A stretch of DNA of 64,000 nucleotides, from NCBI GenBank assembly GCA_964447315.1, contig CAYURQ010000001.1:27351-91350 (forward strand). The letters run 5' to 3'. The notes under the pieces are model-generated. The model did not search any database. It saw only the letters and a list, made by a program, of their open reading frames with translations, and was not told where the DNA came from. This DNA comes from Candidatus Woesearchaeota archaeon. Its GTDB lineage: Archaea; Nanobdellota; Nanobdellia; Pacearchaeales; GW2011-AR1. Each line of letters opens with the position of its first letter. Within the stretch, counting starts at the first letter, position 1. The position numbers and the translations under genes were made by a program. Shown here piece after piece: positions 721-39,898 of this stretch.

Positions 721-3700
721 ATGGCAAGAAATAATCATTTAGTTATGAAGAATTACTTAAAGAATCATTCTTTAGTTGAATCTAATATTACTTCTTTTAA
801 TAATTTTATTGAAAAAAGACTTCAGGAAATTGTAGATGAAATACAAGCCACAATTGATAATGAAGATTTTGAGATTACTTTAGGAAAGATTGAAGTTGGA
901 AATCCAAAAGTTATTGAAGCAGATGGAAGTTATTCTTTTATTACTCCTTCTGAGGCTAGACTTAGAAACTTAACTTATGCTGCTCCTGTTACAATGGAAT
1001 TAACTGTTAAGAAAGATGGGCAAGTAGATTCAGAAGTTGTTGAAATTGGTAAAATGCCTGTTATGGTGAAAAGTAATGTTTGCAATACAAATGGCATGAA
1101 TAGTGATGAACTTGTTGAGAATTATGAAGATCCATTGAATCCTGGAGGGTATTTTATTATTAAAGGAAATGAAAGAGTTATGGTTATGGCTGAAGACTTA
1201 GCAGAAAATCAACCTTTTATTGAAGAAAATAAGAAAGGCGAATTAACTCTTAAAATGTTTTCTTTGAAAGGAACTTACAGAATTCCAGTTACCTTATCAG
1301 AAGATAAAGAAGGAATCTTGAATGTTTCTTTCAGTAGATTTAAGGATTTACCAATTGTTGTTATTCTTAAAGCATTAGGATTGACAAAAGAATCTGATAT
1401 TTCTAAATTAATTGGAAAAGAAACAGATAGTTTAATTGTTAATTTATATGAATTTGTTGATTTAGCAGATAGAGAAGATGCAATGATGTATATTGCTGAA
1501 AAGACAAATTTACAGGGAACAAAGAAAGAAATTTTAGATAGAGTAAAACAAAGAATTGATTCATATTTATTTCCTCATATTGGACAAACTAAAGAAGATA
1601 GAATCAAAAAAGCAACAACCCTTTGTAAATTATTAAAACAATTTTTGATTGCTAAAGATAAACCTGAACTTAGAACAGATAAAGACCATTATGCTAATAA
1701 AAGAGTTAGACTTTCTGGTGATTTACTTGCAACTTTATTTAGAGTTAATTTAGGAATTTTAATTAGAGATATTCAGTATTCCCTTCAAAAATCTTCTAAG
1801 CGTAAGAAATTTTTCTCAATAAAAGTTTTAGCTAAATCAACTTTATTTTCTCATAGAATAGAATCAGCAATTGCAACTGGTTCTTGGACTGGTGAGCGTT
1901 CTGGTATCACTCAAAATATGGATAAAACAAACTATTTAGCGACTATTTCTCAACTTCAGAGAGTTTCAAGTATGCTTCCTGGAGATCAAGAAAATTTTAT
2001 GGCAAGAACATTACATCCAACTCATTATGGAAGATTCTGTCCAATTGAAACTCCAGAAGGTACTGAAATCGGATTACGTAAAAATCTTTCAGTTCTTAGT
2101 AGGGTTTCAACTAGAATTGATATTGATGATGAAAAATTCATGAAAGAATTACATGAGTTGGGAATGGAAAGTGAATCAGATAATCTAGAAGGATACGATG
2201 TTTCACTAAATGGAAAATTTATTGGAACTGTTAAACAAGGAATTAATTTTGTTAAATCTCTTAGGGACAAGAGAAGAGATTCTGGATTGCCAGAGCAAAT
2301 GAATTTTAGACTTGATGAAGGTTTTAGAGTTGTTTCTATTTCAACTGAGCCTGGAAGAGTTTTAAGACCAATGATTATTGTTGATGAAGGAAATCCAAGA
2401 CTAAAGAACGAACATTTAGTTGAAATTGAGCAAGGAGAATTAAACTGGCAAGATTTAGTTAAACAAGGAATTATTGAATATTTAGATGCTTCTGAAGAAG
2501 AAAATTGCTTGATTTCATTATATGAAGAAGAATTAACACCAGAACATACTCATGTAGAAATTGATGTTACTGCTTTATTTGGAGCTGTTACAAGTTTAGT
2601 TCCTTATGGAAATCACGACCAGAGTTCAAGATTGAATAGAGGAAGTAAAACGCAAAAACAGGCACTTGGACTTTACGCTGCTAATTATTTGTGTAGATTA
2701 GATACAGATGTTTCTGTTTTACAATATCCTCAAAAACCAATTGTAAGAAGTTTTGTTTATGACACTTTGAATACCTATCCTGCTGGACAAAATTTAACTG
2801 TTGCAATTATGAGTTATGAAGGATATAATATGGAAGATGCTTTAATATTAAATAAAGGAAGTTTGGATAGGGGAGTGGGAAGAAGTTTTTATTTTAGACC
2901 TTATTCTGCTATTGAAATGAATTATGCTGGTGGATTAAAAGATGAAATTGCATTGCCTGAAAAAGATGCATCAGGTTATAGAACAGAAAAAAGTTATAGA
3001 TTATTAGAAGATGATGGTATTATTTATCCAGAAGCTAATGTTGATGAAGGAGATGTAATTATTGGTAAAATGTCTCCCCCTAAATTCTTGTCAGAAGCTA
3101 GAGAAATTTCAGTAAGAACAAAGAAAGAATCTAGTGTTACAATGAGGCAAGAAGAAAAAGGAATTATTGAATCTGTATTTATTACAGAAGACGATGAAGG
3201 CAATAAAATTGTTCAAGCTAAAACTCGTGATCAAAGAATTCCTGAATTAGGAGATAAATTTGCTACTTCACATGGTCAGAAAGGAGTTATTGGAGAAATT
3301 GTTCCTGAAGATGATGTTCCTTTTACTGCAAATGGGATTAAACCAGATATTATTTTCAATCCACATGGTTTACCAAGTCGTATGACAGTAGGATATTTAC
3401 TTGAATTACTTGCTGGTAAAGTTGGATGTGTTAAAGGAGAAGTTGTTGATGGAACTTCATTCTCTGGAGAAAGTAAATATAATTTAGAACAACAAATGGA
3501 GAAATTAGGATTTAGATTTGATGGTAAAGAAACAATGTATAATGGTATAACTGGAAAGAAAATGAAATCAAAGATTTTTGTTGGGAATTTGTATTATCTT
3601 AAGCTTAAATATATGGTTGGTAATAAGATGCATGGTAGAGCATCTGGTAAAGTTGCACTTTTAACAAGACAACCAATTGAAGGACGTTCTAGGGGTGGAG

Positions 3701-10098: not shown

Positions 10099-10359
10099 AT
10101 GATTTTAGATAATCTTACTATAGAAGAAATTAATTTTTTAGGAAAAATTAATCAAGAATTTAAAAATAAGAATCTAAATGGAAATGTTTACTTAATTAAT
10201 GAAAAGATTAATGGAAAAATAAAAATACTTAATTTTATTGTTAATATGGTAAGTCATAAAGATATTATTTTAAATCTCAAAAAAGATGTAGAAAAATTTA
10301 TTCCTTGTGTTTATGTTTCTAATATATCAAAATATCATGCTTATTGCAAAATTTATTGA
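10099..10359 (+). CDS. hypothetical protein (86 aa)
   Basis: ORF between rps7 and EF-2. Confidence 0.35.
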   Translation: MILDNLTIEEINFLGKINQEFKNKNLNGNVYLINEKINGKIKILNFIVNMVSHKDIILNLKKDVEKFIPCVYVSNISKYHAYCKIY

Positions 10360-18514: not shown

Positions 18515-19693
18515 ATGGCTAAAGTAAGTCCAGTATCAATTAAATATATGATACATGCTAATTTCTCAGCTGAAGGTGCTTTAGAAAAACCTGATGTAAT
18601 CGGAGCTTTATTCGGACAAACAGAAGGTCTATTGGGCGCAGATTTAGAAATGCGTGAATTGCAGAAAGAAGGAAAAATTGGTAGGATTGAAGTTGAATTA
18701 GAAAGAAATGGTAAAAAAACAGTTGGAGTAATAAAAATTCCTACTGCTTTAGATCAATCTGAAACTACTTTAATTGCTGCTGCAATTGAAACTATTGAAA
18801 GAATTGGGCCTAGTGACTCTCAAATAGAAATTGAAAAGATTGAAGATGTCAGAGGAAGTAAAAGAGATTATATCTTGGAAAGAGCTAAAAAACTTATGAA
18901 AGATGTTCATGGTTCTGCTGATTCCAGAGATATTTCAAATCAGATAAAAGATTCTTCTAGAACTTCAATGATTGAAAAATACGGTAAAGAAGAACTTCCT
19001 TGTGGAAATTTATCAGGTGGAGAAGTAATAGTTGTTGAAGGCAGAGCAGATGTTGTTAACTTGTTGAAAGCAGGAGTAAATAATGTTATTGCTATGAATG
19101 GTACAAAACTTCCAGATGCTATCAAAGAATTAGGTAGGAATAAAGAGCTTACTCTTTTTGTTGATGGAGACCGTGGAGGTAAATTAATCATTCAAAATGC
19201 TACTGATAATGCAAATATTGCTTATATTGCTATTGCACCAGATGGAAAAGAAGTTGAAGAATTAACAGGAAAAGAGATTCTTATGAATTTAAGAAAAAAA
19301 GTTACTGTTAAGGAATTCTTCAGGAATGATTCAAGAAATAACTCTAGATATTCTTATCACCAAGAGAAAATATCTAAAGATGAATTAGATGAGGTTATTG
19401 AAGAAATTAAGATTGATGAAACTGAAAAAGTAAAGCTTAAAGGAATTTCAGATAAAATATCTGGAACTGGTAAAGCACTGCTTTTAGATTCAAATTTAGA
19501 AGAATACAAATCAACTTCTGCCCGAAGCATTTCAGGTTTATTGAGAAAACTTGATAAAAAACCAGTGGTAATTGTAATGGATGGAAGTGTTACATCTGGA
19601 ATAATTTCAGCTGCAGAAGAAGTAAAGTGTCAAGTTATTGTTGCAAATAATTTTAGTGCAACAAGTCCAAATATTCAGTTATTAAGTCTTTAA
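18515..19693 (+). CDS. dnaG: archaeal DNA primase DnaG (Toprim)
   Basis: GEVIVVEGRADVVNLLKAGVNNVIAMNGT and FVDGDRGG Toprim motifs; N-terminal region conserved in archaeal DnaG. Confidence 0.85.
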   Translation: MAKVSPVSIKYMIHANFSAEGALEKPDVIGALFGQTEGLLGADLEMRELQKEGKIGRIEVELERNGKKTVGVIKIPTALDQSETTLIAAAIETIERIGPSDSQIEIEKIEDVRGSKRDYILERAKKLMKDVHGSADSRDISNQIKDSSRTSMIEKYGKEELPCGNLSGGEVIVVEGRADVVNLLKAGVNNVIAMNGTKLPDAIKELGRNKELTLFVDGDRGGKLIIQNATDNANIAYIAIAPDGKEVEELTGKEILMNLRKKVTVKEFFRNDSRNNSRYSYHQEKISKDELDEVIEEIKIDETEKVKLKGISDKISGTGKALLLDSNLEEYKSTSARSISGLLRKLDKKPVVIVMDGSVTSGIISAAEEVKCQVIVANNFSATSPNIQLLSL

Positions 19694-19787: not shown

Positions 19788-20270
19788 ATGATTAAAATGA
19801 CAATTACAAAAAAAGTATTAGAGAATACATTTGACTTATATGATGAAGTTGGTAAGGATAGAAAGTTGTATCTTTATGCAGAACTAAAAGAAAATAAAGA
19901 AGTTCTTGAAAAAACAAGACAAAAGACAATTCAAAGAATTAATAATTATTTACATAATAAAGAATTAAAACCAGCTGAGAGAGATTATTTGGAAAGTTTA
20001 AAACAAGAATATTCAAAATTAAGACAAAAACCAACATTGAAAACAAAATTAATGGAATTAGATTTTGATGAAAAAATATTAGGAAAAATATGTGCTTTCT
20101 TAAATCAAAAGTATGAAACTAAATCAATAACTCCTGGAAATGTAACTTATTCATACTTAGAAAATATCAGTGAAAAAGAACTTTTAGAAACAAAAGGGTT
20201 TGGATTAAAAAGTGTTCATGAAATAAAGAATATTCTTGAAAAGCGTGGGTTTAAATTAAAGAAAGAATAA
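19788..20270 (+). CDS. hypothetical protein with C-terminal helix-hairpin-helix resembling RNAP alpha-CTD
   Basis: C-terminus ELLETKGFGLKSVHEIKNILEKRGF resembles alpha-CTD HhH (EL..I.NFG.KSL.EIK..L...G). Confidence 0.45.
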   Translation: MIKMTITKKVLENTFDLYDEVGKDRKLYLYAELKENKEVLEKTRQKTIQRINNYLHNKELKPAERDYLESLKQEYSKLRQKPTLKTKLMELDFDEKILGKICAFLNQKYETKSITPGNVTYSYLENISEKELLETKGFGLKSVHEIKNILEKRGFKLKKE

Positions 20271-20271
20271 A

Positions 20272-20820
20272 ATGGTAAAATCAGACAGGAATTATAGTTT
20301 AACTAATGCAAGAAAAACCCTAGGTTTAACTCAGGCACAATTATCTAGTAGATTAGGAATAAAACCAGAAGTATATAACACTTATGAAACTGGGAGTTAT
20401 ATTCCTTCATTAGATACTCAAGTTAGAATAAGTAATTACTTTGTTGATAATGGAGTTCCAGTTATTGAAAGTGATTTGTTTCCTGAAAAAGAAAGAAGCT
20501 TTGAAAAAGAAAAATTCTATGATAAATTTTTTGATGAAAATCTTGCTTTAGATTTTGAAAACAAAGATCATTTTGATAGTTGTCTTGAAAGAATATTAAC
20601 TCCAAGAGCAGGTGTTAAACCCAGGCAAATAGATATTTTAAAAAGATTTTATGGTATTGGTTGTAATCCAGAATCTGTAGAAGAGATTGCAAAAACAGCA
20701 GGAAAAAATGGGCAGAGCATGAGTAAAGCAAGGGTTTACCAAATGATGCAATCTGCAGTTAATAAAATAAGGAGAGATGTTCTCACTGATAAAAAAAAGC
20801 ATTATTTAATTGAGTTTTAA
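20272..20820 (+). CDS. two-HTH transcription regulator: N-terminal XRE/Cro-type HTH plus C-terminal sigma-70 region-4-like HTH
   Basis: N-term LTNARKTLGLTQAQLSSRLGI (XRE HTH); C-term RQIDILKRFYGIG...SVEEIAKTAG...SKARVYQMMQSAVNKIRR resembles sigma70 r4 (L..RFGL...TLEEIG...RERIRQIE.KAL.KLR). Confidence 0.55.
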   Translation: MVKSDRNYSLTNARKTLGLTQAQLSSRLGIKPEVYNTYETGSYIPSLDTQVRISNYFVDNGVPVIESDLFPEKERSFEKEKFYDKFFDENLALDFENKDHFDSCLERILTPRAGVKPRQIDILKRFYGIGCNPESVEEIAKTAGKNGQSMSKARVYQMMQSAVNKIRRDVLTDKKKHYLIEF

Positions 20821-20906
20821 AAGATGTTTTTACCTTGGATAAAATTAAAAATGATAAGATATGCCTATTTGTTTAGACATTTAGTTACATATTATGAAAA
20901 TTATTC

Positions 20907-20928
20907 ACTATGTGTTAAAACACATAGT
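20907..20928. promoter_or_regulatory. perfect palindrome ACTATGTGTT-AA-AACACATAGT (candidate operator)
   Basis: 10-bp inverted arms with 2-bp spacer in the intergenic region between the HTH regulator and the surface-protein gene. Confidence 0.4.
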
Positions 20929-21032
20929 ATATATGATGTCATTATAAAGTTACACTAATAGTAAGATTTATAAATGAAATTTACTCTCAATAAGTATCAG
21001 AAAACAAAGTTTTTCTGAAGAATTAAATAAAA

Positions 21033-22262: not shown

Positions 22263-22300
22263 CTTTTAATGTAAATTTTTTATTTTTATTTTTTAACTTT

Positions 22301-22324
22301 CTCTTTTCTTTTTTTAGAAAAGAG
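22301..22324 (+). terminator. hairpin CTCTTTTC-(T7A)-GAAAAGAG followed by a T-tract
   Basis: 8-bp stem directly downstream of the surface-protein gene. Confidence 0.35.
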
Positions 22325-22385
22325 AATATTCTTCTTTTTGATATGATAGAAAAAATTAATAAAGAAAATATCTTAAATTAATAAA

Positions 22386-22973: not shown

Positions 22974-25832
22974 CTAAACTTTCAAACTCACAATCTTGCT
23001 AACTCCGTCATGCATACTTACTCCAAATAAATTAGTTGCATTAGTAATTATTTCATCGTTGTGAGTTATAACAAGATATTGTCCTTTTCTCATGAATTTT
23101 TGAAGAAGTCCTGCAAGTCTGCCTGAATTACGCTTGTCTAATGCAGCATCTATCTCATCAAGTATGTAAAAGCAGTAAGGATTTAATTCCTGGATTGCAA
23201 ATATCAGTGAAAGTGCAACCATTGTTTGTTCACCCCCACTTAAAGATGTAACGTCAAAATATTTACCATGCCCTGTTTTAACTACAATTCCAACTCCTCC
23301 ATCAAATGGATCTTTTTTATTTTCTAGTTCTAAAAATACTTGTCCTTTTTCTGAAATAGAAGCAAAATTTCTAGAAAATATTGTATTAAGTTCCTCAAAA
23401 GTTTTCATGAAGGATTTTTTCTTTTTAATATCAATCTCATGAATAATTCTTAAGATGCTATTTTTTTCTTTTTCAATAATCTCTACACGACTTTGAACTG
23501 CTTGGTATTCTTTTTTAATTTCATCGTAAACTTCTAAAGAACGCATATTAACATTACCCATATTATTTAGAGTTGCTTGAGTTTTATTGAATCTTTCTTG
23601 AAGAACCTCTCTGGATTGTTTTATTATTTCAACATTTGGAAATTCCAACAATTCTGTTTCAAAATTTTCAATCTCAGCACTAAAACGTGCTTTTTCAACT
23701 TTAAAATTATTTATCTCTTGTTCAATGTTATAAATTATATTTTTCTTGATTGAAAATTGTTGTTCGTTTTCACGTATTTTTTGATTGCAGAAATCTTTAT
23801 CTTTTAACATGGTATGGTGTTTCCTTGTTAATTCTTCGTCTTGTTTTCTTTTTTCATTTAATTTTCTTTGTTTTTCATTAAAAGATTCTTTTAATTTTTC
23901 TAATTCTTCTGTTATATCTTGAACTTCACGGGCATTTTGTTTTATTGATATTTTTGCACGTTCAAGTTCTCTTTGTTTAAAGGATATTTCTGAATTGATA
24001 TTTTCTGTTGTACGCATTGAAATTTCTTGCATTTCAATTGAAAATTTATCATATTTTTCTTCAACTCCTGAATAATTTTCAAAATCTTTTTCAAGCTTTT
24101 GTTTAATCTTTTCTAGTCCTTGTAATTCTCCTTGTGCAAGATTAATTTTTTCTTGAAGAGCTTTAATCTGTGATTTTTTTTCATTAATACTTGATATTTT
24201 ATTTAAATCATTTTCACGTTTTGATATTTCTTGAGATATTTTTTCAATTTCTTGTTTAAGCATATCTCTATTTGTTTGAATTGTAGTTAAATCTGAGTCA
24301 GAAATAGAAATCTTATCTTCAAGTTTTTTCACTTCTGAATTCACTTCTGAATGAATTGTACTTATATGGTCTTTTGTTATTTTACTTTTACATAAAGGAC
24401 AAATATCCATTTTAGATATTTTTTCAATCATCTTTCTTTGCTTTTCAATTTCTGCTTCATTTGCAAATGAAATTTTATCTAATTCACGTTCTTTTAATAT
24501 TAAATCTTCAAAAAATTCTTTTTTTTGTGCTAATTCAATTCTTAAATTATCAAGAATTTCAATAGAAGTTTTTTTATCAAATAAATCATTAACTGCAGAA
24601 TCAATTTGCTTTATTAAAAAATCTGATTCATTTTTATAATTTTGTAAAATAGATCTTTTATCATCGAACCTTTCACGTATTGATTTTAATTCAGAACGTG
24701 TTGTATAAAATTTCTTTCTTTGTTCTTCTAATTCATCTAATTTTTGTTTTTTTGTTTTAAGCTCTTTTTCTTTTTTAGCAAGGCTTGGAGATTCTTTTTG
24801 AAGTGTTTTTAATTCTAACTCGTTATCACGAATTGAATTTTCTAATTCAACTTTTGATTTTTTCAAGGAATTTAACTTTGTTTCATTATTTTCAATTCTT
24901 ACTTTAAGGCCTTCTAAATCTGCCCTAAGTGTTGCAATTTCTGAATTAAGTTTTTCTTGTTCTAATCCTGTTGATTCTGTTATCTTTGAATCTATTGTTT
25001 TTACTTTTTCTTCAAGATTTTTAATAACTGCTTGGATATTTACAATTGTTTTTTTAACTTTTTCAATTTCTTTGTTTTTCTTTTCAATATTATCATCAAT
25101 TGAAGAAGCGTGTTTTTGTTTTTTATTTAAATCATGAGTTAATATGCTGGCTTTAAATTTTTTAATATCTTCCTGATATTTTTTATAACGTAGAGCTTGT
25201 TCTCTTTCTTTTTCAAGATTATTTAAGTAAGATGTTCTTTCACGAAGTATGGATAATACATCTTTTAACTTGTTTTCAGTCCTGTTTAATTCTTTTAGTG
25301 ATTTTTCTTTCCTAGATTCATAGATTGAGATTCCAGATACTTCTTCAATAATTTTACGTCTTTCTTCAGTATGCATTCTTACAAAGTTTTGAATTTCACC
25401 TTGCAAGATTATATTGAATCCATTTGGATCAATTCCTGCTTGGGCAAGTAAACCAAGTATTTCTTGTCTTGTTTTTGTTTGATTATTTATTTTGTATATG
25501 CTTTGTCCGTTTCTACGTACAATACGTTTAATTGATATTTCTTTATCATTTATTGAAAAAGCATTGTCTGAATTATCAAAAATCATTTCAACTGATGCTT
25601 CTTTTGCAGGTGAAGCAGCTTTTGTTCCCATGAAAATAAGATTTTTGGCTTTTGCAGCACGCATTGATTTAACACTTAATCTACCTAAAACAAAGCATAA
25701 TGCATCTGAAACATTACTCTTACCAGAACCATTAGGACCTAAAATTACATTAATTCCTGAAGTAAATGGAATTTCTGTTTTTCTAGGGAAACTTTTGAAA
25801 CCATGCATCACCAGTTTTTTAATATAAGCCAT
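22974..25832 (-). CDS. SMC-family ATPase with Rad50-like CxxC zinc hook in place of a hinge
   Basis: N-term GPNGSGKSNVSDALCFVLG, LIF, ILQGEI and C-term LSGGEQTMVALSLIFAIQ...ILDEIDAALD...GVSMHDGVSKIVSL are SMC-like; mid-protein MDICPLCKSKIT hook; no Gly-rich hinge; 952 aa. Confidence 0.8.
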   Translation of the reverse strand: MAYIKKLVMHGFKSFPRKTEIPFTSGINVILGPNGSGKSNVSDALCFVLGRLSVKSMRAAKAKNLIFMGTKAASPAKEASVEMIFDNSDNAFSINDKEISIKRIVRRNGQSIYKINNQTKTRQEILGLLAQAGIDPNGFNIILQGEIQNFVRMHTEERRKIIEEVSGISIYESRKEKSLKELNRTENKLKDVLSILRERTSYLNNLEKEREQALRYKKYQEDIKKFKASILTHDLNKKQKHASSIDDNIEKKNKEIEKVKKTIVNIQAVIKNLEEKVKTIDSKITESTGLEQEKLNSEIATLRADLEGLKVRIENNETKLNSLKKSKVELENSIRDNELELKTLQKESPSLAKKEKELKTKKQKLDELEEQRKKFYTTRSELKSIRERFDDKRSILQNYKNESDFLIKQIDSAVNDLFDKKTSIEILDNLRIELAQKKEFFEDLILKERELDKISFANEAEIEKQRKMIEKISKMDICPLCKSKITKDHISTIHSEVNSEVKKLEDKISISDSDLTTIQTNRDMLKQEIEKISQEISKRENDLNKISSINEKKSQIKALQEKINLAQGELQGLEKIKQKLEKDFENYSGVEEKYDKFSIEMQEISMRTTENINSEISFKQRELERAKISIKQNAREVQDITEELEKLKESFNEKQRKLNEKRKQDEELTRKHHTMLKDKDFCNQKIRENEQQFSIKKNIIYNIEQEINNFKVEKARFSAEIENFETELLEFPNVEIIKQSREVLQERFNKTQATLNNMGNVNMRSLEVYDEIKKEYQAVQSRVEIIEKEKNSILRIIHEIDIKKKKSFMKTFEELNTIFSRNFASISEKGQVFLELENKKDPFDGGVGIVVKTGHGKYFDVTSLSGGEQTMVALSLIFAIQELNPYCFYILDEIDAALDKRNSGRLAGLLQKFMRKGQYLVITHNDEIITNATNLFGVSMHDGVSKIVSLKV

Positions 25833-31535: not shown

Positions 31536-31832
31536 TTATTCTTCATCTTCCTCAAGAACTAGTAAACTAAGTAAAACAATTAATACTCCTGCTATTATAG
31601 AAATTACCCAGCTTAGCCAACCTAACTCTAGAGTCTTAAACTTAATTATTAAAAAACCTGCAATACCAAGCAATCCTATGAATATATAATCTTTTCGTAT
31701 TTTTTCTTTGATAATTGGGGCGTGTTCTGAAAATACATCAAGAATTCCAGTAACAATTACAACAACCAATAATATATTTAAGTTAAGATAAGTGCTAACA
31801 AGTCCTGCCCATATTTGTTCAATCAATAACAA
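31536..31832 (-). CDS. 3-TM small membrane protein, copy 1 of 4
   Basis: near-identical copies at 33542, 36225 and 38237; a divergent relative at 44150. Confidence 0.5.
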   Translation of the reverse strand: MLLIEQIWAGLVSTYLNLNILLVVVIVTGILDVFSEHAPIIKEKIRKDYIFIGLLGIAGFLIIKFKTLELGWLSWVISIIAGVLIVLLSLLVLEEDEE

Positions 31833-31873
31833 TATTAGATAAGTTACTAAGACTGTTTGAAAGATGTGATTTA

Positions 31874-31908
31874 CTAGGGATGCGTTGTGTCTGTGGAAAA
31901 GGGAAAAG
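31874..31908 (+). repeat. G/T-rich element variant CTAGGGATGCGTTGTGTCTGTGGAAAAGGGAAAAG
   Basis: 5' region of the membrane-protein gene; related to 33886..33949. Confidence 0.35.
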
Positions 31909-31937
31909 TTTATAGAATTTTAAATTATTATTAAAAC

Positions 31938-32324
31938 ATGGAAGAAAGAGATGTAATAATTAAGATTTATGATAAAAAAGAAGAAATTAATAAAATAATT
32001 AAAGAATTAAAAAAATATTCATTTGAAGATTACATTAAAACTGGCCATTATGAAATTTCTTTATTAACTAAAGGAACAGATGAAGATAAATTGAGAGAGA
32101 TTTATCCTAAATTTGATATTATAGAATTAATAGCATTGAGGAGGCATAAAAATGGTTATGAGAATTATGATGTTTATTATGAACTTGAAAAAGGAAATTA
32201 TGCTTTGTTTGCCATAAATCTAGAAGGTAAAAAACCTAAAATAGATAATGCATTTATAGCTAATAGAATATTCAAAAATTTCTTAAAATCTATGGTAAAA
32301 AGATATGGTAATAAAATGGTTTAA
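31938..32324 (+). CDS. hypothetical protein (128 aa)
   Basis: duplicated at 36633. Confidence 0.45.
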   Translation: MEERDVIIKIYDKKEEINKIIKELKKYSFEDYIKTGHYEISLLTKGTDEDKLREIYPKFDIIELIALRRHKNGYENYDVYYELEKGNYALFAINLEGKKPKIDNAFIANRIFKNFLKSMVKRYGNKMV

Positions 32325-32656
32325 TTAGTCATGCATTGCATAGGTATATTTGCTATAGGAATTTGTTTTATTCCTGCTTTTTCATCTTCTAATCCCACCC
32401 CAATAAATAATTGATCTCTGCTTGGTTTTACAATAAGATTTAATTTTTCAAAGTCTTTTATTTGTTGTATATTAAACCCTATTGCCTCAAGAAAATTAGA
32501 AAACTCTCTTACTTCTAAACTAACTACTTTTCCGTTTCCAGTAGTGCTAATAATAAAATCTCCAAAGCTAAAATTCTTCTTAACTTTCTCATTATCTTGA
32601 ATAGAAGCCACAATTAAGCTGTCTGTATTCTCATCATATTTAGAGACTTTTATCAT
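32321..32656 (-). CDS. DUF2283-like small protein (111 aa)
   Basis: N-term MIKVSKYDENTDSLIVAS resembles DUF2283 (MKI.YD.EADALYIRL). Confidence 0.35.
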   Translation of the reverse strand: MIKVSKYDENTDSLIVASIQDNEKVKKNFSFGDFIISTTGNGKVVSLEVREFSNFLEAIGFNIQQIKDFEKLNLIVKPSRDQLFIGVGLEDEKAGIKQIPIANIPMQCMTN

Positions 32657-32756
32657 ATTTTATAATAATATTTTGTTTATTTATACCTTTCTATTCATCT
32701 TCTAGAGGCAAGTAAAACATATAAATCTTAATAAATAATTAAAACTCCTTTTCTTA

Positions 32757-33545
32757 ATGGGAATTGATTCATCTGAAGCAAATCAAATAATAAACGCTAT
32801 TGATTTTGTAAATCATCATTATGGAGGTTCTGCAAAAGTTACTGGAGAATTCTTTTGTAAAGACTGTAATGAGAAATTTCCTTCTGGAGAATTTCGTTAT
32901 GATAAAGGAGGGTATATTCCAGGGCCAGGTTTAATTAATTTGTCTTCTGAAAGGGCTGCATTTCCCCTTCATGAGTTTCATACTGTTCTTGCTTTAAAAG
33001 ATTCTGATGAGATCTATGAAAAAAGAGTGATTTTAGACTTATTTAATAAATCAAGAAACTGGAATTTTTATGATGTTCCAGAAAGATGCTTTGAGGATTA
33101 TATGAAAATAATGAAAACAAGCTCACTAATTTCTATTGCTAGTCTAGAAGCTAATCATTGGTGTTATTCACTTCATTCAACACCAGATTTTACAGAAGAA
33201 GAAATGCTGGAGGATCCTATTAAAAGGGATATTCTAGAAATGGATAGGAAGATTAATCTTAGGCCAAATAAATTAGAAAATGAGGTTAAACCAGAAATAA
33301 ATCGGGTTTTCAAAGACATAATTGGTAATAGAGAAATTCCAATAATTTATATTATTCCAGAAGAATTTAGAGGAGATTTTGGAGAGGAATATTATAAAAG
33401 GGATTTTATTGAAGCAACATACAATACTTTTAAAGCAAAGAACATACTTTTTCCAGATGAAAAAAGAAATTCTGTTATTAAAATAATTGATTCTTACTTT
33501 AAAGAAGCAGAATTAAAGCATGAAAGACACCCTTCTCCTTTTTAG
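32757..33545 (+). CDS. hypothetical protein (262 aa)
   Basis: duplicated at 37452. Confidence 0.45.
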   Translation: MGIDSSEANQIINAIDFVNHHYGGSAKVTGEFFCKDCNEKFPSGEFRYDKGGYIPGPGLINLSSERAAFPLHEFHTVLALKDSDEIYEKRVILDLFNKSRNWNFYDVPERCFEDYMKIMKTSSLISIASLEANHWCYSLHSTPDFTEEEMLEDPIKRDILEMDRKINLRPNKLENEVKPEINRVFKDIIGNREIPIIYIIPEEFRGDFGEEYYKRDFIEATYNTFKAKNILFPDEKRNSVIKIIDSYFKEAELKHERHPSPF

Positions 33546-33844
33546 GATTCTTCATCCTCTTCTAAAACAAGTAAACTAAGTAAAACAATTAATACTCCTG
33601 CAACAAGAGATATTACCCATGACAACCATCCTAATTCTAGTGTTTTAAACTTGATTATCAGGAAACCTGCAATACCAAGCAATCCTATAAATATGTAATC
33701 TTTAGGTTTTATTTTTTCTTTAATAATTGGAGCGTGTTCTGAAAATACATCAAGAATTCCAGTAACAATTACAACAACTAATAAGATATTTAAGTTAAGA
33801 TAAGTGCTAACAAGTCCTGCCCATATTTGCTCAATTAATAACAA
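33542..33844 (-). CDS. 3-TM small membrane protein, copy 2 of 4
   Basis: ~90% identical to copy 1. Confidence 0.5.
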   Translation of the reverse strand: MLLIEQIWAGLVSTYLNLNILLVVVIVTGILDVFSEHAPIIKEKIKPKDYIFIGLLGIAGFLIIKFKTLELGWLSWVISLVAGVLIVLLSLLVLEEDEES

Positions 33845-33885
33845 TATTAGATAAGTTACTAAGACTGTTTGAAAGGTGTGATTTA

Positions 33886-33949
33886 CTAGGGATGTGTTGT
33901 GTCCACGGAATAGGAGGTGTTGGAGTGAGGGTTTGGGAATGTTGATAGG
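33886..33949 (+). repeat. G/T-rich element (GGGTTGGAATGTTGATAGG subfamily)
   Basis: shares GGGTT(T)GG(G)AAT(A)TGTTGATAGGAT with 58344..58409 and 59472..59524. Confidence 0.4.
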
Positions 33950-33960
33950 ATTATTTTAAT

Positions 33961-34602
33961 TTATATAGAAGAATTAATATCTCCATGCACTACTAATGAT
34001 TGATAATTTTCAAATAAGAAAGGGGCATAAAATTGGGCTTCTGGAAAATCTTTAGTTGTACTTAGATACCAAATATTCTCTTCCATTTTATCTTTAGCTC
34101 TTTCAACTGACTTTTCTATAGTAGAACCTTCTATTAATGCTTTAACAAGGATATTTGAGGGTTCTAAAAATAATTTTGCTATTTTATCTCTTCTTGGAGA
34201 TGCCTCCTGATTAGGATCTTTCCCAAGATTAAAATCTCTCTCATATCCAATAAAACAAATGGCTCCTTTAGTAACTATTATCTTCCCTAGTTTTTGTCCT
34301 GATGAACAAGTTAGGGAATAAACAACCATGCCTGAAAGAACTTTTGCATTTTCTTTAGAGATTATTATCTCATTTTTATGCCCAGCAATCAAATCAGGAT
34401 TACCATGCCCATTAAACATAATAAAATCTGGTTTTTGCTTTTTTATAATTTTTAAGATTTCTTTTTTATTTGCTTTTTCTCTTTCCCTATTTATTGTTTT
34501 GTTTCCTCTTTCTTTCGAATATTTAACTAATTCTTTACTATAATAATATAAATAAGAGAGGGTCCCATCATGCTCGGGTCTGGAAAAAATAATATTACTC
34601 AT
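33961..34602 (-). CDS. clan CD cysteine peptidase-like protein (minimal caspase/legumain-like fold)
   Basis: hydrophobic strand + His-Gly (FIMFNGHG), then 34 aa later hydrophobic strand + Cys (VVYSLTCSSGQ); this is the His/Cys dyad arrangement of caspase/legumain/gingipain. Confidence 0.45.
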   Translation of the reverse strand: MSNIIFSRPEHDGTLSYLYYYSKELVKYSKERGNKTINREREKANKKEILKIIKKQKPDFIMFNGHGNPDLIAGHKNEIIISKENAKVLSGMVVYSLTCSSGQKLGKIIVTKGAICFIGYERDFNLGKDPNQEASPRRDKIAKLFLEPSNILVKALIEGSTIEKSVERAKDKMEENIWYLSTTKDFPEAQFYAPFLFENYQSLVVHGDINSSI

Positions 34603-34604
34603 AA

Positions 34605-34841
34605 TTATTGTTTTACTAAAAAACCTCTTTTGAAAGCTTTAAGATAGTTTAATTGGATTTCAACTATTCTATTTCCAATATCTGTATTATCTTCTATGTT
34701 TTTTATCAACTCATCTCTTTTCATAAATTTTCCATCAGACATTCCAAATGAAACACTTACATTTGGGGAAGCCTGCCTAATTCTTTCTATGACTATTTCT
34801 TTCTTTAACTGATCTATATTCTCTTGTTTATTTTCTTTCAT
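34605..34841 (-). CDS. hypothetical protein (78 aa), operon member
   Basis: stop 3 nt before the peptidase-like gene start. Confidence 0.4.
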   Translation of the reverse strand: MKENKQENIDQLKKEIVIERIRQASPNVSVSFGMSDGKFMKRDELIKNIEDNTDIGNRIVEIQLNYLKAFKRGFLVKQ

Positions 34842-35020
34842 ATTATTTCTAACTCTTTTAGTATTTTTAATATTTTCTCTCCATTTTCTGTCTTATTCTT
34901 TATTTCTTGGTAAGCAAGATTCCAACTTATTGGATTTTTATCTATAATTACTATTGTATTGTTTCTTTCTTTTATAGGCACTCCAGAATAAACTTTAAAG
35001 AAATCTTCTTCATTTACCAT
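34838..35020 (-). CDS. hypothetical protein (60 aa), first gene of operon
   Basis: 4-nt overlap with the next gene. Confidence 0.35.
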   Translation of the reverse strand: MVNEEDFFKVYSGVPIKERNNTIVIIDKNPISWNLAYQEIKNKTENGEKILKILKELEII

Positions 35021-35203
35021 TATTAAATTAGTAAATTAATCTTTTTAATTTTTGTCATTTCTTTTTCCTCGGCTTATTCCAATAAGGACTTTGGGGTTTC
35101 ATGAAACACTGAAGAGAAAAGGATATTTAAATGCTGTTTTTTGGAGTGTGGGTAAAACAATTCATCTTAATCTATATATTTTTTAATTAATGATTCTATA
35201 ATT

Positions 35204-35464
35204 TTAATTATACACTTTATCTCTTTTATCAATTTTTACTATCAAAATTATTTTCTGAGCTTCTTTAATTTTATATAATGCTCTAAAGTACCCAATTCTA
35301 TACCTAAAAACCATCTCATTATTATCTCTCCCAATAAACTTTGAATCACTTGGTACAGGAGTATTTTCAAGGTTTTTTAATCTCTTTTCAATCCTTTCTC
35401 TTTCTTTGGTATCTAATTTGTTTAAAAAATCCTGGGCTTTAACAGACAGCTCTACAGAATACAT
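35204..35464 (-). CDS. relE: RelE/ParE-family toxin
   Basis: MYSVELSVKAQDFLNKLDTKERERIEKRLKNLENTP...FRYRIGYFRALYKI...IILIVKIDKRDKVY matches the RelE/ParE consensus throughout. Confidence 0.75.
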   Translation of the reverse strand: MYSVELSVKAQDFLNKLDTKERERIEKRLKNLENTPVPSDSKFIGRDNNEMVFRYRIGYFRALYKIKEAQKIILIVKIDKRDKVYN

Positions 35465-35465
35465 T

Positions 35466-35627
35466 TTACAGTCTCTTTGTTCTGCCTTCTTTTAAATCTT
35501 CTTCAGCTTGATTTAAAGAGTTTATGTCGTCTTGGGTTAGAGTTACATCTATTATGTGCTCCTTTAAAGAATCCATATCTTTTTTTAAATTGTCTAGTTT
35601 ACTTATGATTAATTCTTCGTTTTCCAT
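35466..35627 (-). CDS. putative antitoxin (53 aa, not in the supplied ORF track)
   Basis: MENEELIISKLDNLKKDMDSLKEHIIDVTLTQDDINSLNQAEEDLKEGRTKRL; stop 1 nt before the relE start. Confidence 0.5.
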   Translation of the reverse strand: MENEELIISKLDNLKKDMDSLKEHIIDVTLTQDDINSLNQAEEDLKEGRTKRL

Positions 35628-35677
35628 ATCTTCCAATATAAAAATAACTATATAATCTTTTCGTATTTTTTATTTTT

Positions 35678-35715
35678 CATAAGGGGTGTTGGTTGGAGCA
35701 TTTTAGGGAGTATTG
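35678..35715 (+). repeat. G/T-rich boundary element CATAAGGGGTGTTGGTTGGAGCATTTTAGGGAGTATTG
   Basis: marks the end of duplicated unit 1; recurs at 40373, 41489 and 46630. Confidence 0.6.
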
Positions 35716-35781
35716 TAAATTAAAAAAAAAGAAATAATTAGCAGAACAATCAAAAAAAATTAGAAAAGATATGGAAAGAAT

Positions 35782-36189
35782 CTACAAAATTTCTTTTAAA
35801 TAATTAGATAAATTTAAATCCCTAATTTCTTGTTTTCTTAACCATTTATAATCTTCATGTTCTTTACTTAACTTAACATTCTCTGGTTTTTCATGAGTTT
35901 TTAATATATATATTATTCTTAAAAGATGAACTTTTTTCCCTTGTTTCTCATATTCTTTACTTAATATTCTATAGATTGAAACTATTTCTGTATCGAGACT
36001 TGTTTCTTCCTTAACTTCTCTAAGTACAGCTTCAGAAGGATCTTCTCCAAATTCAACTCTTCCTCCAGGAATTTCCCATTCTCGAGAACCATCTACTTCT
36101 TTTGAATTTCTTTTAAGAAAAAGAAACTTATCTTGTATCTGAATCAATCCATTTGCTAAAATATTTGTTTTTTTCTTAATTTCTGACAT
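35782..36189 (-). CDS. Nudix hydrolase
   Basis: Nudix box GGRVEFGEDPSEAVLREVKEETSL. Confidence 0.8.
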   Translation of the reverse strand: MSEIKKKTNILANGLIQIQDKFLFLKRNSKEVDGSREWEIPGGRVEFGEDPSEAVLREVKEETSLDTEIVSIYRILSKEYEKQGKKVHLLRIIYILKTHEKPENVKLSKEHEDYKWLRKQEIRDLNLSNYLKEIL

Positions 36190-36224
36190 GTTTTAATAAA
36201 AGAATACATTTTATTTAAGGTTTT

Positions 36225-36527
36225 CTAATCTTGTTGTTCACCTTCTTCTAAAACAAGCAAACTAAGTAAAACAATTAATACTCCTGCTATTATAGAAATT
36301 ACCCAGCTTAGCCAACCTAACTCTAGAGTCTTAAACTTAATTATTAAAAAACCTGCAATACCAAGCAATCCTATGAATATATAATCTTTTCGTATTTTTT
36401 CTTTGATAATTGGGGCGTGTTCTGAAAATACATCAAGAATTCCAGTAACAATTACAACAACCAATAATATATTTAAGTTAAGATAAGTGCTAACAAGTCC
36501 TGCCCATATTTGTTCAATCAATAACAA
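36225..36527 (-). CDS. 3-TM small membrane protein, copy 3 of 4
   Basis: C-terminus differs from copy 1 (EEGEQQD vs EEDEE) at the duplication junction. Confidence 0.5.
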   Translation of the reverse strand: MLLIEQIWAGLVSTYLNLNILLVVVIVTGILDVFSEHAPIIKEKIRKDYIFIGLLGIAGFLIIKFKTLELGWLSWVISIIAGVLIVLLSLLVLEEGEQQD

Positions 36528-36632
36528 TATTAGATAAGTTACTAAGACTGTTTGAAAGATGTGATTTACTAGGGATGCGTTGTGTCTGTGGAAAAGGGAA
36601 AAGTTTATAGAATTTTAAATTATTATTAAAAC

Positions 36633-37019
36633 ATGGAAGAAAGAGATGTAATAATTAAGATTTATGATAAAAAAGAAGAAATTAATAAAATAATTAAAGA
36701 ATTAAAAAAATATTCATTTGAAGATTACATTAAAACTGGCCATTATGAAATTTCTTTATTAACTAAAGGAACAGATGAAGATAAATTGAGAGAGATTTAT
36801 CCTAAATTTGATATTATAGAATTAATAGCATTGAGGAGGCATAAAAATGGTTATGAGAATTATGATGTTTATTATGAACTTGAAAAAGGAAATTATGCTT
36901 TGTTTGCCATAAATCTAGAAGGTAAAAAACCTAAAATAGATAATGCATTTATAGCTAATAGAATATTCAAAAATTTCTTAAAATCTATGGTAAAAAGATA
37001 TGGTAATAAAATGGTTTAA
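36633..37019 (+). CDS. hypothetical protein (128 aa), duplicate
   Basis: identical to 31938..32324. Confidence 0.45.
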   Translation: MEERDVIIKIYDKKEEINKIIKELKKYSFEDYIKTGHYEISLLTKGTDEDKLREIYPKFDIIELIALRRHKNGYENYDVYYELEKGNYALFAINLEGKKPKIDNAFIANRIFKNFLKSMVKRYGNKMV

Positions 37020-37351
37020 TTAGTCATGCATTGCATAGGTATATTTGCTATAGGAATTTGTTTTATTCCTGCTTTTTCATCTTCTAATCCCACCCCAATA
37101 AATAATTGATCTCTGCTTGGTTTTACAATAAGATTTAATTTTTCAAAGTCTTTTATTTGTTGTATATTAAACCCTATTGCCTCAAGAAAATTAGAAAACT
37201 CTCTTACTTCTAAACTAACTACTTTTCCGTTTCCAGTAGTGCTAATAATAAAATCTCCAAAGCTAAAATTCTTCTTAACTTTCTCATTATCTTGAATAGA
37301 AGCCACAATTAAGCTGTCTGTATTCTCATCATATTTAGAGACTTTTATCAT
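37016..37351 (-). CDS. DUF2283-like small protein, duplicate
   Basis: identical to 32321..32656. Confidence 0.35.
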   Translation of the reverse strand: MIKVSKYDENTDSLIVASIQDNEKVKKNFSFGDFIISTTGNGKVVSLEVREFSNFLEAIGFNIQQIKDFEKLNLIVKPSRDQLFIGVGLEDEKAGIKQIPIANIPMQCMTN

Positions 37352-37451
37352 ATTTTATAATAATATTTTGTTTATTTATACCTTTCTATTCATCTTCTAG
37401 AGGCAAGTAAAACATATAAATCTTAATAAATAATTAAAACTCCTTTTCTTA

Positions 37452-38240
37452 ATGGGAATTGATTCATCTGAAGCAAATCAAATAATAAACGCTATTGATT
37501 TTGTAAATCATCATTATGGAGGTTCTGCAAAAGTTACTGGAGAATTCTTTTGTAAAGACTGTAATGAGAAATTTCCTTCTGGAGAATTTCGTTATGATAA
37601 AGGAGGGTATATTCCAGGGCCAGGTTTAATTAATTTGTCTTCTGAAAGGGCTGCATTTCCCCTTCATGAGTTTCATACTGTTCTTGCTTTAAAAGATTCT
37701 GATGAGATCTATGAAAAAAGAGTGATTTTAGACTTATTTAATAAATCAAGAAACTGGAATTTTTATGATGTTCCAGAAAGATGCTTTGAGGATTATATGA
37801 AAATAATGAAAACAAGCTCACTAATTTCTATTGCTAGTCTAGAAGCTAATCATTGGTGTTATTCACTTCATTCAACACCAGATTTTACAGAAGAAGAAAT
37901 GCTGGAGGATCCTATTAAAAGGGATATTCTAGAAATGGATAGGAAGATTAATCTTAGGCCAAATAAATTAGAAAATGAGGTTAAACCAGAAATAAATCGG
38001 GTTTTCAAAGACATAATTGGTAATAGAGAAATTCCAATAATTTATATTATTCCAGAAGAATTTAGAGGAGATTTTGGAGAGGAATATTATAAAAGGGATT
38101 TTATTGAAGCAACATACAATACTTTTAAAGCAAAGAACATACTTTTTCCAGATGAAAAAAGAAATTCTGTTATTAAAATAATTGATTCTTACTTTAAAGA
38201 AGCAGAATTAAAGCATGAAAGACACCCTTCTCCTTTTTAG
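37452..38240 (+). CDS. hypothetical protein (262 aa), duplicate
   Basis: identical to 32757..33545. Confidence 0.45.
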   Translation: MGIDSSEANQIINAIDFVNHHYGGSAKVTGEFFCKDCNEKFPSGEFRYDKGGYIPGPGLINLSSERAAFPLHEFHTVLALKDSDEIYEKRVILDLFNKSRNWNFYDVPERCFEDYMKIMKTSSLISIASLEANHWCYSLHSTPDFTEEEMLEDPIKRDILEMDRKINLRPNKLENEVKPEINRVFKDIIGNREIPIIYIIPEEFRGDFGEEYYKRDFIEATYNTFKAKNILFPDEKRNSVIKIIDSYFKEAELKHERHPSPF

Positions 38241-38539
38241 GATTCTTCATCCTCTTCTAAAACAAGTAAACTAAGTAAAACAATTAATACTCCTGCAACA
38301 AGAGATATTACCCATGACAACCATCCTAATTCTAGTGTTTTAAACTTGATTATCAGGAAACCTGCAATACCAAGCAATCCTATAAATATGTAATCTTTAG
38401 GTTTTATTTTTTCTTTAATAATTGGAGCGTGTTCTGAAAATACATCAAGAATTCCAGTAACAATTACAACAACTAATAAGATATTTAAGTTAAGATAAGT
38501 GCTAACAAGTCCTGCCCATATTTGCTCAATTAATAACAA
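38237..38539 (-). CDS. 3-TM small membrane protein, copy 4 of 4
   Basis: identical to 33542..33844. Confidence 0.5.
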   Translation of the reverse strand: MLLIEQIWAGLVSTYLNLNILLVVVIVTGILDVFSEHAPIIKEKIKPKDYIFIGLLGIAGFLIIKFKTLELGWLSWVISLVAGVLIVLLSLLVLEEDEES

Positions 38540-38655
38540 TATTAGATAAGTTACTAAGACTGTTTGAAAGGTGTGATTTACTAGGGATGTGTTGTGTCCA
38601 CGGAATAGGAGGTGTTGGAGTGAGGGTTTGGGAATGTTGATAGGATTATTTTAAT

Positions 38656-39297
38656 TTATATAGAAGAATTAATATCTCCATGCACTACTAATGATTGATA
38701 ATTTTCAAATAAGAAAGGGGCATAAAATTGGGCTTCTGGAAAATCTTTAGTTGTACTTAGATACCAAATATTCTCTTCCATTTTATCTTTAGCTCTTTCA
38801 ACTGACTTTTCTATAGTAGAACCTTCTATTAATGCTTTAACAAGGATATTTGAGGGTTCTAAAAATAATTTTGCTATTTTATCTCTTCTTGGAGATGCCT
38901 CCTGATTAGGATCTTTCCCAAGATTAAAATCTCTCTCATATCCAATAAAACAAATGGCTCCTTTAGTAACTATTATCTTCCCTAGTTTTTGTCCTGATGA
39001 ACAAGTTAGGGAATAAACAACCATGCCTGAAAGAACTTTTGCATTTTCTTTAGAGATTATTATCTCATTTTTATGCCCAGCAATCAAATCAGGATTACCA
39101 TGCCCATTAAACATAATAAAATCTGGTTTTTGCTTTTTTATAATTTTTAAGATTTCTTTTTTATTTGCTTTTTCTCTTTCCCTATTTATTGTTTTGTTTC
39201 CTCTTTCTTTCGAATATTTAACTAATTCTTTACTATAATAATATAAATAAGAGAGGGTCCCATCATGCTCGGGTCTGGAAAAAATAATATTACTCAT
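38656..39297 (-). CDS. clan CD cysteine peptidase-like protein, duplicate
   Basis: identical to 33961..34602. Confidence 0.45.
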   Translation of the reverse strand: MSNIIFSRPEHDGTLSYLYYYSKELVKYSKERGNKTINREREKANKKEILKIIKKQKPDFIMFNGHGNPDLIAGHKNEIIISKENAKVLSGMVVYSLTCSSGQKLGKIIVTKGAICFIGYERDFNLGKDPNQEASPRRDKIAKLFLEPSNILVKALIEGSTIEKSVERAKDKMEENIWYLSTTKDFPEAQFYAPFLFENYQSLVVHGDINSSI

Positions 39298-39299
39298 AA

Positions 39300-39536
39300 T
39301 TATTGTTTTACTAAAAAACCTCTTTTGAAAGCTTTAAGATAGTTTAATTGGATTTCAACTATTCTATTTCCAATATCTGTATTATCTTCTATGTTTTTTA
39401 TCAACTCATCTCTTTTCATAAATTTTCCATCAGACATTCCAAATGAAACACTTACATTTGGGGAAGCCTGCCTAATTCTTTCTATGACTATTTCTTTCTT
39501 TAACTGATCTATATTCTCTTGTTTATTTTCTTTCAT
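39300..39536 (-). CDS. hypothetical protein (78 aa), duplicate
   Basis: identical to 34605..34841. Confidence 0.4.
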   Translation of the reverse strand: MKENKQENIDQLKKEIVIERIRQASPNVSVSFGMSDGKFMKRDELIKNIEDNTDIGNRIVEIQLNYLKAFKRGFLVKQ

Positions 39537-39715
39537 ATTATTTCTAACTCTTTTAGTATTTTTAATATTTTCTCTCCATTTTCTGTCTTATTCTTTATTT
39601 CTTGGTAAGCAAGATTCCAACTTATTGGATTTTTATCTATAATTACTATTGTATTGTTTCTTTCTTTTATAGGCACTCCAGAATAAACTTTAAAGAAATC
39701 TTCTTCATTTACCAT
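39533..39715 (-). CDS. hypothetical protein (60 aa), duplicate
   Basis: identical to 34838..35020. Confidence 0.35.
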   Translation of the reverse strand: MVNEEDFFKVYSGVPIKERNNTIVIIDKNPISWNLAYQEIKNKTENGEKILKILKELEII

Positions 39716-39898
39716 TATTAAATTAGTAAATTAATCTTTTTAATTTTTGTCATTTCTTTTTCCTCGGCTTATTCCAATAAGGACTTTGGGGTTTCATGAA
39801 ACACTGAAGAGAAAAGGATATTTAAATGCTGTTTTTTGGAGTGTGGGTAAAACAATTCATCTTAATCTATATATTTTTTAATTAATGATTCTATAATT

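Follow-up and report, generated by a model that had tools for sequence, protein, structure and literature searches.

An alpha-CTD-type protein and an XRE–sigma-70 region 4-type protein encoded beside a conserved surface-protein promoter in a Woesearchaeota-like archaeon

In bacteria, the C-terminal domain of the RNA polymerase alpha subunit (alpha-CTD) and region 4 of the sigma factor are known partners, touching each other on adjacent promoter DNA sites. In archaea, transcription factor domains of the bacterial helix-turn-helix (HTH) type are the norm. The usual targets of XRE proteins are palindromic, and in Methanocaldococcus the dimeric factor Ptr2 has its sites 5' of TATA boxes. We know of almost nothing on gene regulation in the uncultured DPANN archaea. 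Sigma-70-class (bacterial sigma-like) genes have been described in DPANN/Woesearchaeota (Castelle et al. 2021, PMC8204110). Here we analyse a stretch of 64,000 nucleotides (nt) from contig CAYURQ010000001.1 of a Candidatus Woesearchaeota archaeon, referred to below as the window, in which two adjacent open reading frames, ORF1 and ORF2 (together, the cassette), encode an alpha-CTD-type protein and a protein that joins an XRE HTH to a sigma-70 region 4-type (sigma-4) domain, and are followed by a palindrome and by the gene of a surface-layer (S-layer)-like protein. Since bacterial-type HTH domains are the norm in archaea and sigma-70-like genes have already been reported, the presence of bacterial-type regulator domains in Woesearchaeota would by itself be a modest claim. 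What is new is the tight genetic linkage of an alpha-CTD-type protein, a sigma-4-type domain and an XRE domain in an organism with a polymerase that depends on neither alpha nor sigma.

The original prediction for this DNA had read the palindrome as a plausible operator for ORF2. On balance we favour a different reading, in which ORF1 and ORF2 are an accessory, clade-restricted regulator pair that sits beside a lineage-wide S-layer promoter element bound by another factor; the palindrome is probably not a private operator of ORF1/ORF2. The gene order on the + strand is dnaG, ORF1, ORF2, surface-protein gene. ORF1 and ORF2 do adjoin as predicted, although the gap given as 2 nt is a coordinate difference of 2 and amounts to a single base (20271) between the ORF1 stop and the ORF2 ATG. 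The predicted surface-protein gene downstream of the palindrome is also there, its product having an N-terminal hydrophobic signal/transmembrane segment, Ig-like/FixG_C-type domains and a C-terminal transmembrane anchor.

The palindrome, ACTATGTGTT-AA-AACACATAGT, is indeed an exact 10+2+10 palindrome, located 86 nt past the ORF2 stop and 104 nt ahead of the surface-protein ATG. We nevertheless reject its perfection alone as a sign of significance: in Markov-1 simulations, approximately 2.7 perfect palindromes (arms of 10 nt or longer, spacer up to 6 nt) are expected per 64 kb by chance, and 5 are seen in the window, which leaves the bare palindrome within chance. Its significance comes solely from the conservation of the underlying dyad in related genomes. 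A search with the surface protein, taking one genome per species, yielded 26 loci in metagenome-assembled genomes of Woese-, Pace- and Nanoarchaeota (51–80% identity), and in 24 of these a dyad is found at −58 to −71 relative to the TATA box (at −51 in one). The palindrome, hereafter site B, is the instance in the window of this motif, (TTC)ACT-N3-TGT-N4/5-ACA-N3-AGT. Across 20 sites, the twelve specified positions of the dyad are 75–100% conserved, and no more than 3–6 of the 20 have complementary bases at mirrored N3 positions, about what chance would give. Since the N3 triplets are not complementary elsewhere, the perfection of the palindrome here is incidental, and the pattern of conservation fits a protein-binding DNA dyad and not an RNA hairpin. 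The same picture emerges from the orthologous cassette loci, where site B reads ACTGGATGTCAGGACAAAAAGT (locus L002) and ACTGAATGTTAAAACACCGAGT (locus L033): conservation of the palindrome in orthologous loci had been set beforehand as a test, and it is the degenerate dyad that is retained at this position, not the perfect form. The 12 loci with an exact match to the dyad motif have it at this promoter position only, and no second exact match was found elsewhere in the window.

The distribution of the dyad is what speaks most directly to the operator. Cassette presence was judged within flanks of at most 4 kb on each side, several contigs being shorter, by tblastn and with hidden Markov models (HMMs) of the families. 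Under this scope, 20 of the 24 dyad-bearing loci are without a cassette gene, and L004 has the dyad together with an alpha-CTD-like ORF only; no other ORF1 or ORF2 homologue was detected in the flanks of the 26 surface-protein loci. The dyad being present without a cassette gene in the flanks, site B does not depend on the ORF1/ORF2 regulator. The predicted operator thus finds no support, and the co-occurrence of regulator pair and palindrome that had been proposed as a check does not hold, the dyad recurring at about −60 irrespective of the cassette. The dyad approximately 60 nt 5' of the TATA box would most likely be bound by a lineage-wide dimeric factor and regulate the S-layer promoter from upstream. 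The nearest described counterparts are the archaeal upstream activating sites of Ptr2: in both cases a dyad, sometimes in two copies, lies at a fixed distance 5' of the B recognition element (BRE)/TATA box of a highly expressed gene. The dyad sequence, however, is unrelated to that of the Ptr2 sites, and the dyad here could serve either activation or repression.

ORF1 was predicted to end in a helix-hairpin-helix (HhH) domain resembling the alpha-CTD, and this holds. Its residues 120–152 score above the cut-off of the Pfam family RNA_pol_A_CTD (PF03118; 24.8 bits, cut-off 23.8), and a profile of the C-terminal part of the ORF1 family (approximately 75 residues) matched 50 sequences in the PDB, all of them bacterial RpoA (best E-value 1.8e-7), with both HhH halves aligning to the RpoA C-terminal domains. 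ORF1 thus shares with the bacterial alpha-CTD the signature of the double HhH fold, and its family profile matches the C-terminal domains of RpoA only. It differs from the alpha-CTD in being free-standing, with an unrelated helical N-terminus in place of the alpha N-terminal domain and in a host whose polymerase is archaeal, in an insertion of approximately 10 residues between the two hairpins, and, in the window, in the degenerate first motif. The second HhH motif is retained in the window ORF1 (GFGLKS), whereas the first is replaced by DFDEKILGKI; the L033 and L002 orthologues retain S.R..NC at this point. The DNA-binding residues of the bacterial alpha-CTD (R265/N268/C269 and G296/K298/S299 in E. 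coli) align with the motifs R..NC and G.K, both of which are retained in the L002 and L033 orthologues. Orthologues of ORF1 are present in L002, L033 and L034. The N-terminal part of ORF1 had no family match and could not be aligned even between orthologues.

The N-terminal Cro/XRE HTH predicted for ORF2 is equally clear. Residues 12–57 match HTH_3 (PF01381; E-value 5e-9, 36.4 bits, cut-off 23), the AlphaFold model reaches a predicted local distance difference test (pLDDT) score of 87–95 over residues 11–40, and in Foldseek comparisons the fold of this part has TM-scores of 0.78–0.85 to the CylR2, lambda-repressor-like and DR_2454 structures, with C.AhdI also at about 0.8. The C-terminal domain is harder to place. 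Residues 116–167 match Pfam Sigma70_r4 (PF04545) weakly (13.5 bits, cut-off 24.1, E-value 0.05), and the match to TIGR02937 is likewise below its NCBIfam cut-off (14.7 versus 42.9, E-value 0.018). A profile of the C-terminal part of the ORF2 family, however, finds SigA region 4 in the PDB at an E-value of approximately 1e-5 (9e-6). Two of the proteins found by HMMER from the ORF2 C-terminus, P0007 and P0008, pass Pfam Sigma70_r4, and in PHROGs ORF2 is weakly placed in a sigma-factor family and also matches phage regulator families. As Foldseek with the full-length ORF2 model is dominated by the XRE domain, residues 95–182 were modelled separately (pLDDT 81); the best 40 PDB matches of this model are all to proteins of the sigma-70 family, at TM-scores of approximately 0.6 and 20–23% identity, although every E-value is at least 0.1 and none is significant. 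Judged from profile and model, the relationship to sigma-4 is real but remote. The original prediction therefore had the kind of domain right, and a different HTH family, looked for as its refutation, was not what the profile returned, but the claimed match to region 4 'almost residue for residue' does not survive the low identity and the sub-threshold Pfam and NCBIfam scores, nor does it survive a five-residue insertion (KNGQS) in the turn of the HTH. This insertion is found in the archaeal members only. In the C-terminal model, a nine-residue loop joins helices 42–48 and 58–78, where a canonical HTH has a short turn.

ORF2 can thus be set against two described groups of proteins. Regions 4.1–4.2 of sigma-70 are the closest match of its C-terminus both by profile and by fold, and the nearest bacterial sequences have the motif R-[FY]-YGIGC in common with the ORF2 family. 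In contrast to sigma-70 factors, ORF2 is without regions 1–3, and the region 4-type domain, which carries the turn insertion and scores below the Pfam cut-off, is fused to an XRE HTH or encoded beside one. With no region 2, the N-terminal half being the XRE HTH, ORF2 is not a sigma factor. Among XRE/Cro repressors with a second domain (SinR, the controller C proteins, phage repressors), the likeness lies in the five-helix XRE domain at the N-terminus and in the small gene beside a promoter region. The difference is that the C-terminus of ORF2 is a second HTH, of sigma-4 type, in place of an oligomerisation or sensor domain. Any operator of ORF2 is putative, and the palindrome near ORF2 is not specific to it.

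Relatives of the cassette are few. An exhaustive HMMER search with ORF2 residues 70–182 against 1.84 billion representatives found only 7 proteins that match this C-terminal part. Single-sequence searches with ORF1 and ORF2 recovered nothing beyond the two query proteins from 5.8 billion clusters, scans of genomes, metagenomes and viruses with an alignment of ORF2 and its homologue P0003 returned nothing, tblastn against a phage collection found no relative, and a second metagenome scan, with the sigma-4 alignment, yielded ordinary full-length bacterial sigma-70 factors only and no further cassette. P0003 and P0009 are full-length homologues of ORF2, and P0004 and P0010 are its split version. 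In L002 and L003, the gene order is a 75-amino acid (aa) free-standing alpha-CTD (in L002, a paralogue that scores 41.8 bits with Pfam over model positions 17–66), a 189-aa protein with an alpha-CTD at its C-terminus, then XRE-sigma4 (39% identity to ORF2) and the surface-protein gene. In L033, it is dnaG, a 160-aa alpha-CTD protein, the XRE-sigma4 gene (45–48% identity to ORF2) and the surface-protein gene. In the split version, present in L030 and L034–L040, the alpha-CTD protein is followed by separate sigma-4-only (115 aa) and XRE-only (99 aa) proteins and by a small membrane protein, and after these comes the surface-gene promoter. The alpha-CTD, XRE and sigma-4 modules therefore recur jointly in four lineages, fused or split and always just 5' of the surface-protein gene, and in the surface-protein tree the cassette loci (the window, L004, L002 and L033) form one clade. 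In L004, the closest by surface protein (80%), positions 2921–3618 hold a short ORF with a weak alpha-CTD-like HhH (GFGKKLAYDIKYFIEKMGY) and a masked run of N inside it, and the slot also holds a 146-aa membrane protein that by eye is like the fourth gene of the L034 split cassette; no XRE-sigma4 gene was found there by tblastn or family HMMs in the flanks examined. Outside the cassette, P0005 (647 aa) has several, and P0006 (1067 aa) ten or more, tandem sigma-4-like HTH repeats that share the motif YFGI/YYGIG; both come from A+T-rich sources. In the literature library that was searched, we came across no account of an archaeal alpha-CTD-type protein, nor of free-standing proteins of this type being linked to sigma-4 modules.

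What the pair might do is constrained by its host. The window (72% A+T) is from the chromosome of a Woesearchaeota-like DPANN archaeon of the tiny, symbiotic type. The archaeal context assumed in the original prediction is evident from the proteins encoded in the window: the Rpb2- and Rpb1-type RNA polymerase subunits, S12, S7, EF-2, EF-1alpha, DnaG and SMC. Given this archaeal polymerase, and with neither a region 2 nor an alpha N-terminal domain, ORF1 and ORF2 cannot serve as alpha subunit or sigma factor; they would most likely be ordinary regulators, site-specific or architectural, acting on archaeal promoters. The two genes form a small operon restricted to one clade of Woesearchaeota-like DPANN archaea, where it occupies the interval from dnaG to the surface-protein gene. 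That the modules are fused in some lineages and split in another, always adjoining the alpha-CTD gene, argues that the three act together, and because they always travel together the most likely arrangement would be one heteromeric DNA-binding regulator made up of three bacterial-type DNA-binding modules. It is a long shot that the alpha-CTD-like and sigma-4-like proteins have kept their bacterial partnership and, together with the XRE domain, assemble on the duplicated dyads at the S-layer promoter into a nucleoprotein complex independent of the polymerase; were this so, an archaeal TBP/TFB-dependent promoter would be activated by re-used bacterial promoter-recognition machinery. More remote still is the variant in which the proteins mimic bacterial polymerase modules so as to interfere with a bacterial partner. 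The trio is a natural test of whether alpha-CTD and sigma-4 can function away from the polymerase.

What lies between dnaG and the surface gene varies among genomes, and the cassette is one of several alternative occupants of this slot. The slot is empty in 7 loci, with dnaG directly abutting the surface-gene promoter. In 7 others (among L004–L029) it holds an AP-endonuclease-2/UvdE-type TIM-barrel protein of 256–273 aa, in L016, L022 and L025 a family of proteins of approximately 80–130 aa with the motif FMNKNYGTQI, and in L011 an AbrB/ParE-like (toxin-antitoxin-like) pair. Ahead of the cassette lies a predicted promoter block duplicated from the surface-gene core promoter. No further sequence in the window fits the pattern that these two share, and the block aligns with the S-layer promoters and is kept in L033 and L004. 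The cassette would thus be transcribed from a duplicate of a strong core promoter. Past the cassette, a T5 tract is likely to serve as a termination signal of archaeal type, archaeal transcription being terminated at oligo-T.

The coordinates of all features are collected in Table 1. The surface-protein promoter itself has a layout that is shared among the loci. Beyond site B and, in the cassette-bearing clade only, a distal copy of the dyad (site A), it comprises a second, different dyad, a putative TATA box (TTTATAAA), to which we assign the promoter role by inference, and a stem-loop. The stem-loop is present in 25 of the 26 loci, with stems of 6–12 bp (most of at least 8) that start 26–32 nt past the first T of the TATA box, and is followed by a conserved AATTAAATAAA-ATG. 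The stem sequences vary (CAG/CTG, TAG/CTA, CGA/TCG, TGA/TCA) and the pairing is kept. These stems were found sequence by sequence, as the 5' leaders fell out of register when aligned with MAFFT and RNAalifold gave no consensus. The stem-loop may be an mRNA-stabilising or translation element. The right half of the second dyad recurs in the cassette promoter. The literature that we searched did not describe an S-layer promoter laid out in this way. A design so strongly conserved, with a single or doubled dyad at a set distance, a further dyad, the TATA box and the stem-loop, is new for the surface-protein promoters of uncultured DPANN archaea, and it gives this group a defined cis-element and a candidate strong promoter.

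Table 1. Positions of the genes, protein domains and promoter elements in the window
Feature	Position	Strand	Remarks
ORF1, 160 aa	19788-20270	+	fast-evolving helical N-terminal part and C-terminal alpha-CTD-type double HhH
ORF1, alpha-CTD-type double HhH	residues ~87-160, nt 20046-20267	+	
ORF2, 182 aa	20272-20820	+	XRE/Cro HTH, low-confidence linker, sigma-70 region 4-type HTH
ORF2, XRE/Cro HTH	residues ~9-59, nt 20296-20448	+	
ORF2, sigma-70 region 4-type HTH	residues ~98-172, nt 20563-20787	+	
Proximal dyad (site B), the reported palindrome	20907-20928	.	starts 60 nt 5' of TATA box
Distal dyad (site A), CCTATTTGTTTAGACATTTAGT	20864-20885	.	43 nt 5' of site B; cassette-bearing clade only
Second conserved dyad, GTCATTATAAAGTTAC (GTAACTaTTAAATTAC in relatives)	20938-20953	.	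between site B and TATA box
Predicted TATA box of surface-protein gene, TTTATAAA	20967-20974	+	conserved AGTAAG/AAAG just 5'; position invariant in 26 loci
Stem-loop, TCAGAAAA-CAAAGT-TTTTCTGA	20997-21018	+	at or near predicted 5' end of surface-protein mRNA
Surface (S-layer-like) protein, 409 aa	21033-22262	+	gene behind conserved promoter; 26 homologous loci at 51-80% identity
Predicted cassette promoter block, AGTTACAACATATAGAAAGATTTTTAAA	19744-19771	+	paralogue of surface-gene core promoter
TATA-like element of cassette promoter, TTTTTAAA	19764-19771	+	
T5 tract	20827-20831	+	7 nt past ORF2 stop; read from sequence
Archaeal DnaG-type Toprim protein (dnaG)	18515-19693		5' of ORF1
SMC	22974-25832		

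That a dimer of ORF2, perhaps with ORF1, binds site B (and site A) as an operator and controls the surface-protein gene we consider possible but doubtful. The case for it is one of position and conservation: the cassette adjoins the surface-gene promoter in all four cassette lineages, only the cassette clade has the dyad in duplicate, as sites A and B at a distance of 43 nt, conservation among orthologues extends to site A and to the predicted recognition helices of both HTHs, and palindromes are what XRE proteins usually bind. At L034, the equivalent of site A (1408–1427) is a perfect 20-nt palindrome, CCAAATGTCTAGACATTTGG. Yet site B is equally conserved in the 20 loci without a cassette gene in the flanks, L004 retains both sites in the absence of an XRE-sigma4 gene, the cassette and site A fall on one clade, so that their co-occurrence may amount to a single event of shared ancestry, and half-site triplets only 6 bp apart would be a poor fit to a monomer with two HTHs. 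Several of these observations, along with others, nonetheless weigh against the reading that we prefer, an accessory pair beside a promoter element bound by another factor. In every cassette-bearing lineage the cassette lies immediately 5' of the surface-gene promoter, and the distal dyad exists in the cassette clade alone; because of this constant adjacency and the extra dyad, a role of the cassette at this promoter is conceivable. A diverged cassette homologue could also lie beyond the flanks examined (at most 4 kb, some short). The window ORF1, having lost the residues of the first HhH, may not bind DNA in the manner of an alpha-CTD, and the alignments behind both ORF2 structure models are very shallow (4–5 sequences).

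It is unlikely, in our assessment, that the cassette is what is left of a mobile element or provirus in decay (an XRE-type repressor with accessory DNA-binding proteins) that inserted at a hot spot and plays no part in the control of host genes. No integrase, repeats or tRNA flank the cassette, viral contig and phage collections gave no match, and four diverged lineages agree in position and gene order, their reading frames being intact and the promoter conserved. These features have to be set against a cargo of the slot that differs between genomes and includes the toxin-antitoxin-like pair of L011, against the phage regulator families of PHROGs that ORF2 matches, and against fast evolution: ORF2 is at 39–48% identity where the surface protein is at 65–80%, and the N-terminus of ORF1 is unalignable between lineages. 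Least probable of all, to the point of being hardly credible, is that the palindrome acts as RNA, be it a terminator hairpin for the cassette or a structured leader, or that it lies in a small protein gene (ORF 20824–20958, 35–44 aa). A 10-bp stem is possible, and an open frame across the palindrome is kept in the window, L002, L004 and L033, where a 37-aa ORF was called in L033. The element, however, lies 5' of the TATA box. The hairpin or terminator was rejected, as there is no compensatory change at N3 (3–6 of 20 sites complementary) and no T-run 3' of the palindrome, the T5 tract instead directly following the ORF2 stop. The conserved small ORF (35 aa) spanning both dyads in these four loci was rejected on codon-position statistics (variable columns 8/11/10 over the codon positions; 7–12 non-synonymous versus 1–3 synonymous changes) and on spacer length, which is 4 or 5 nt depending on the locus and so breaks the frame.

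Scans of the window with Rfam and for tRNAs gave no matches. Among the other perfect palindromes of the window are three with arms of 10–12 nt, at 22299–22326, 56552–56580 and 10129–10152, of which the first two have T-runs. The palindrome at 22299–22326 is 37 nt past the surface-gene stop and that at 10129–10152 is 46 nt past the S7 stop; these two look like putative 3'-end hairpins. Finally, the window carries a tandem duplication at approximately 31536–40000 with a period of 4695 nt, which encodes four proteins without a Pfam match. The ORF pattern of 31938–34602 recurs at 36633–39297, and a comparison of 300 nt between the copies at 31536 and 36231 shows 97% identity.

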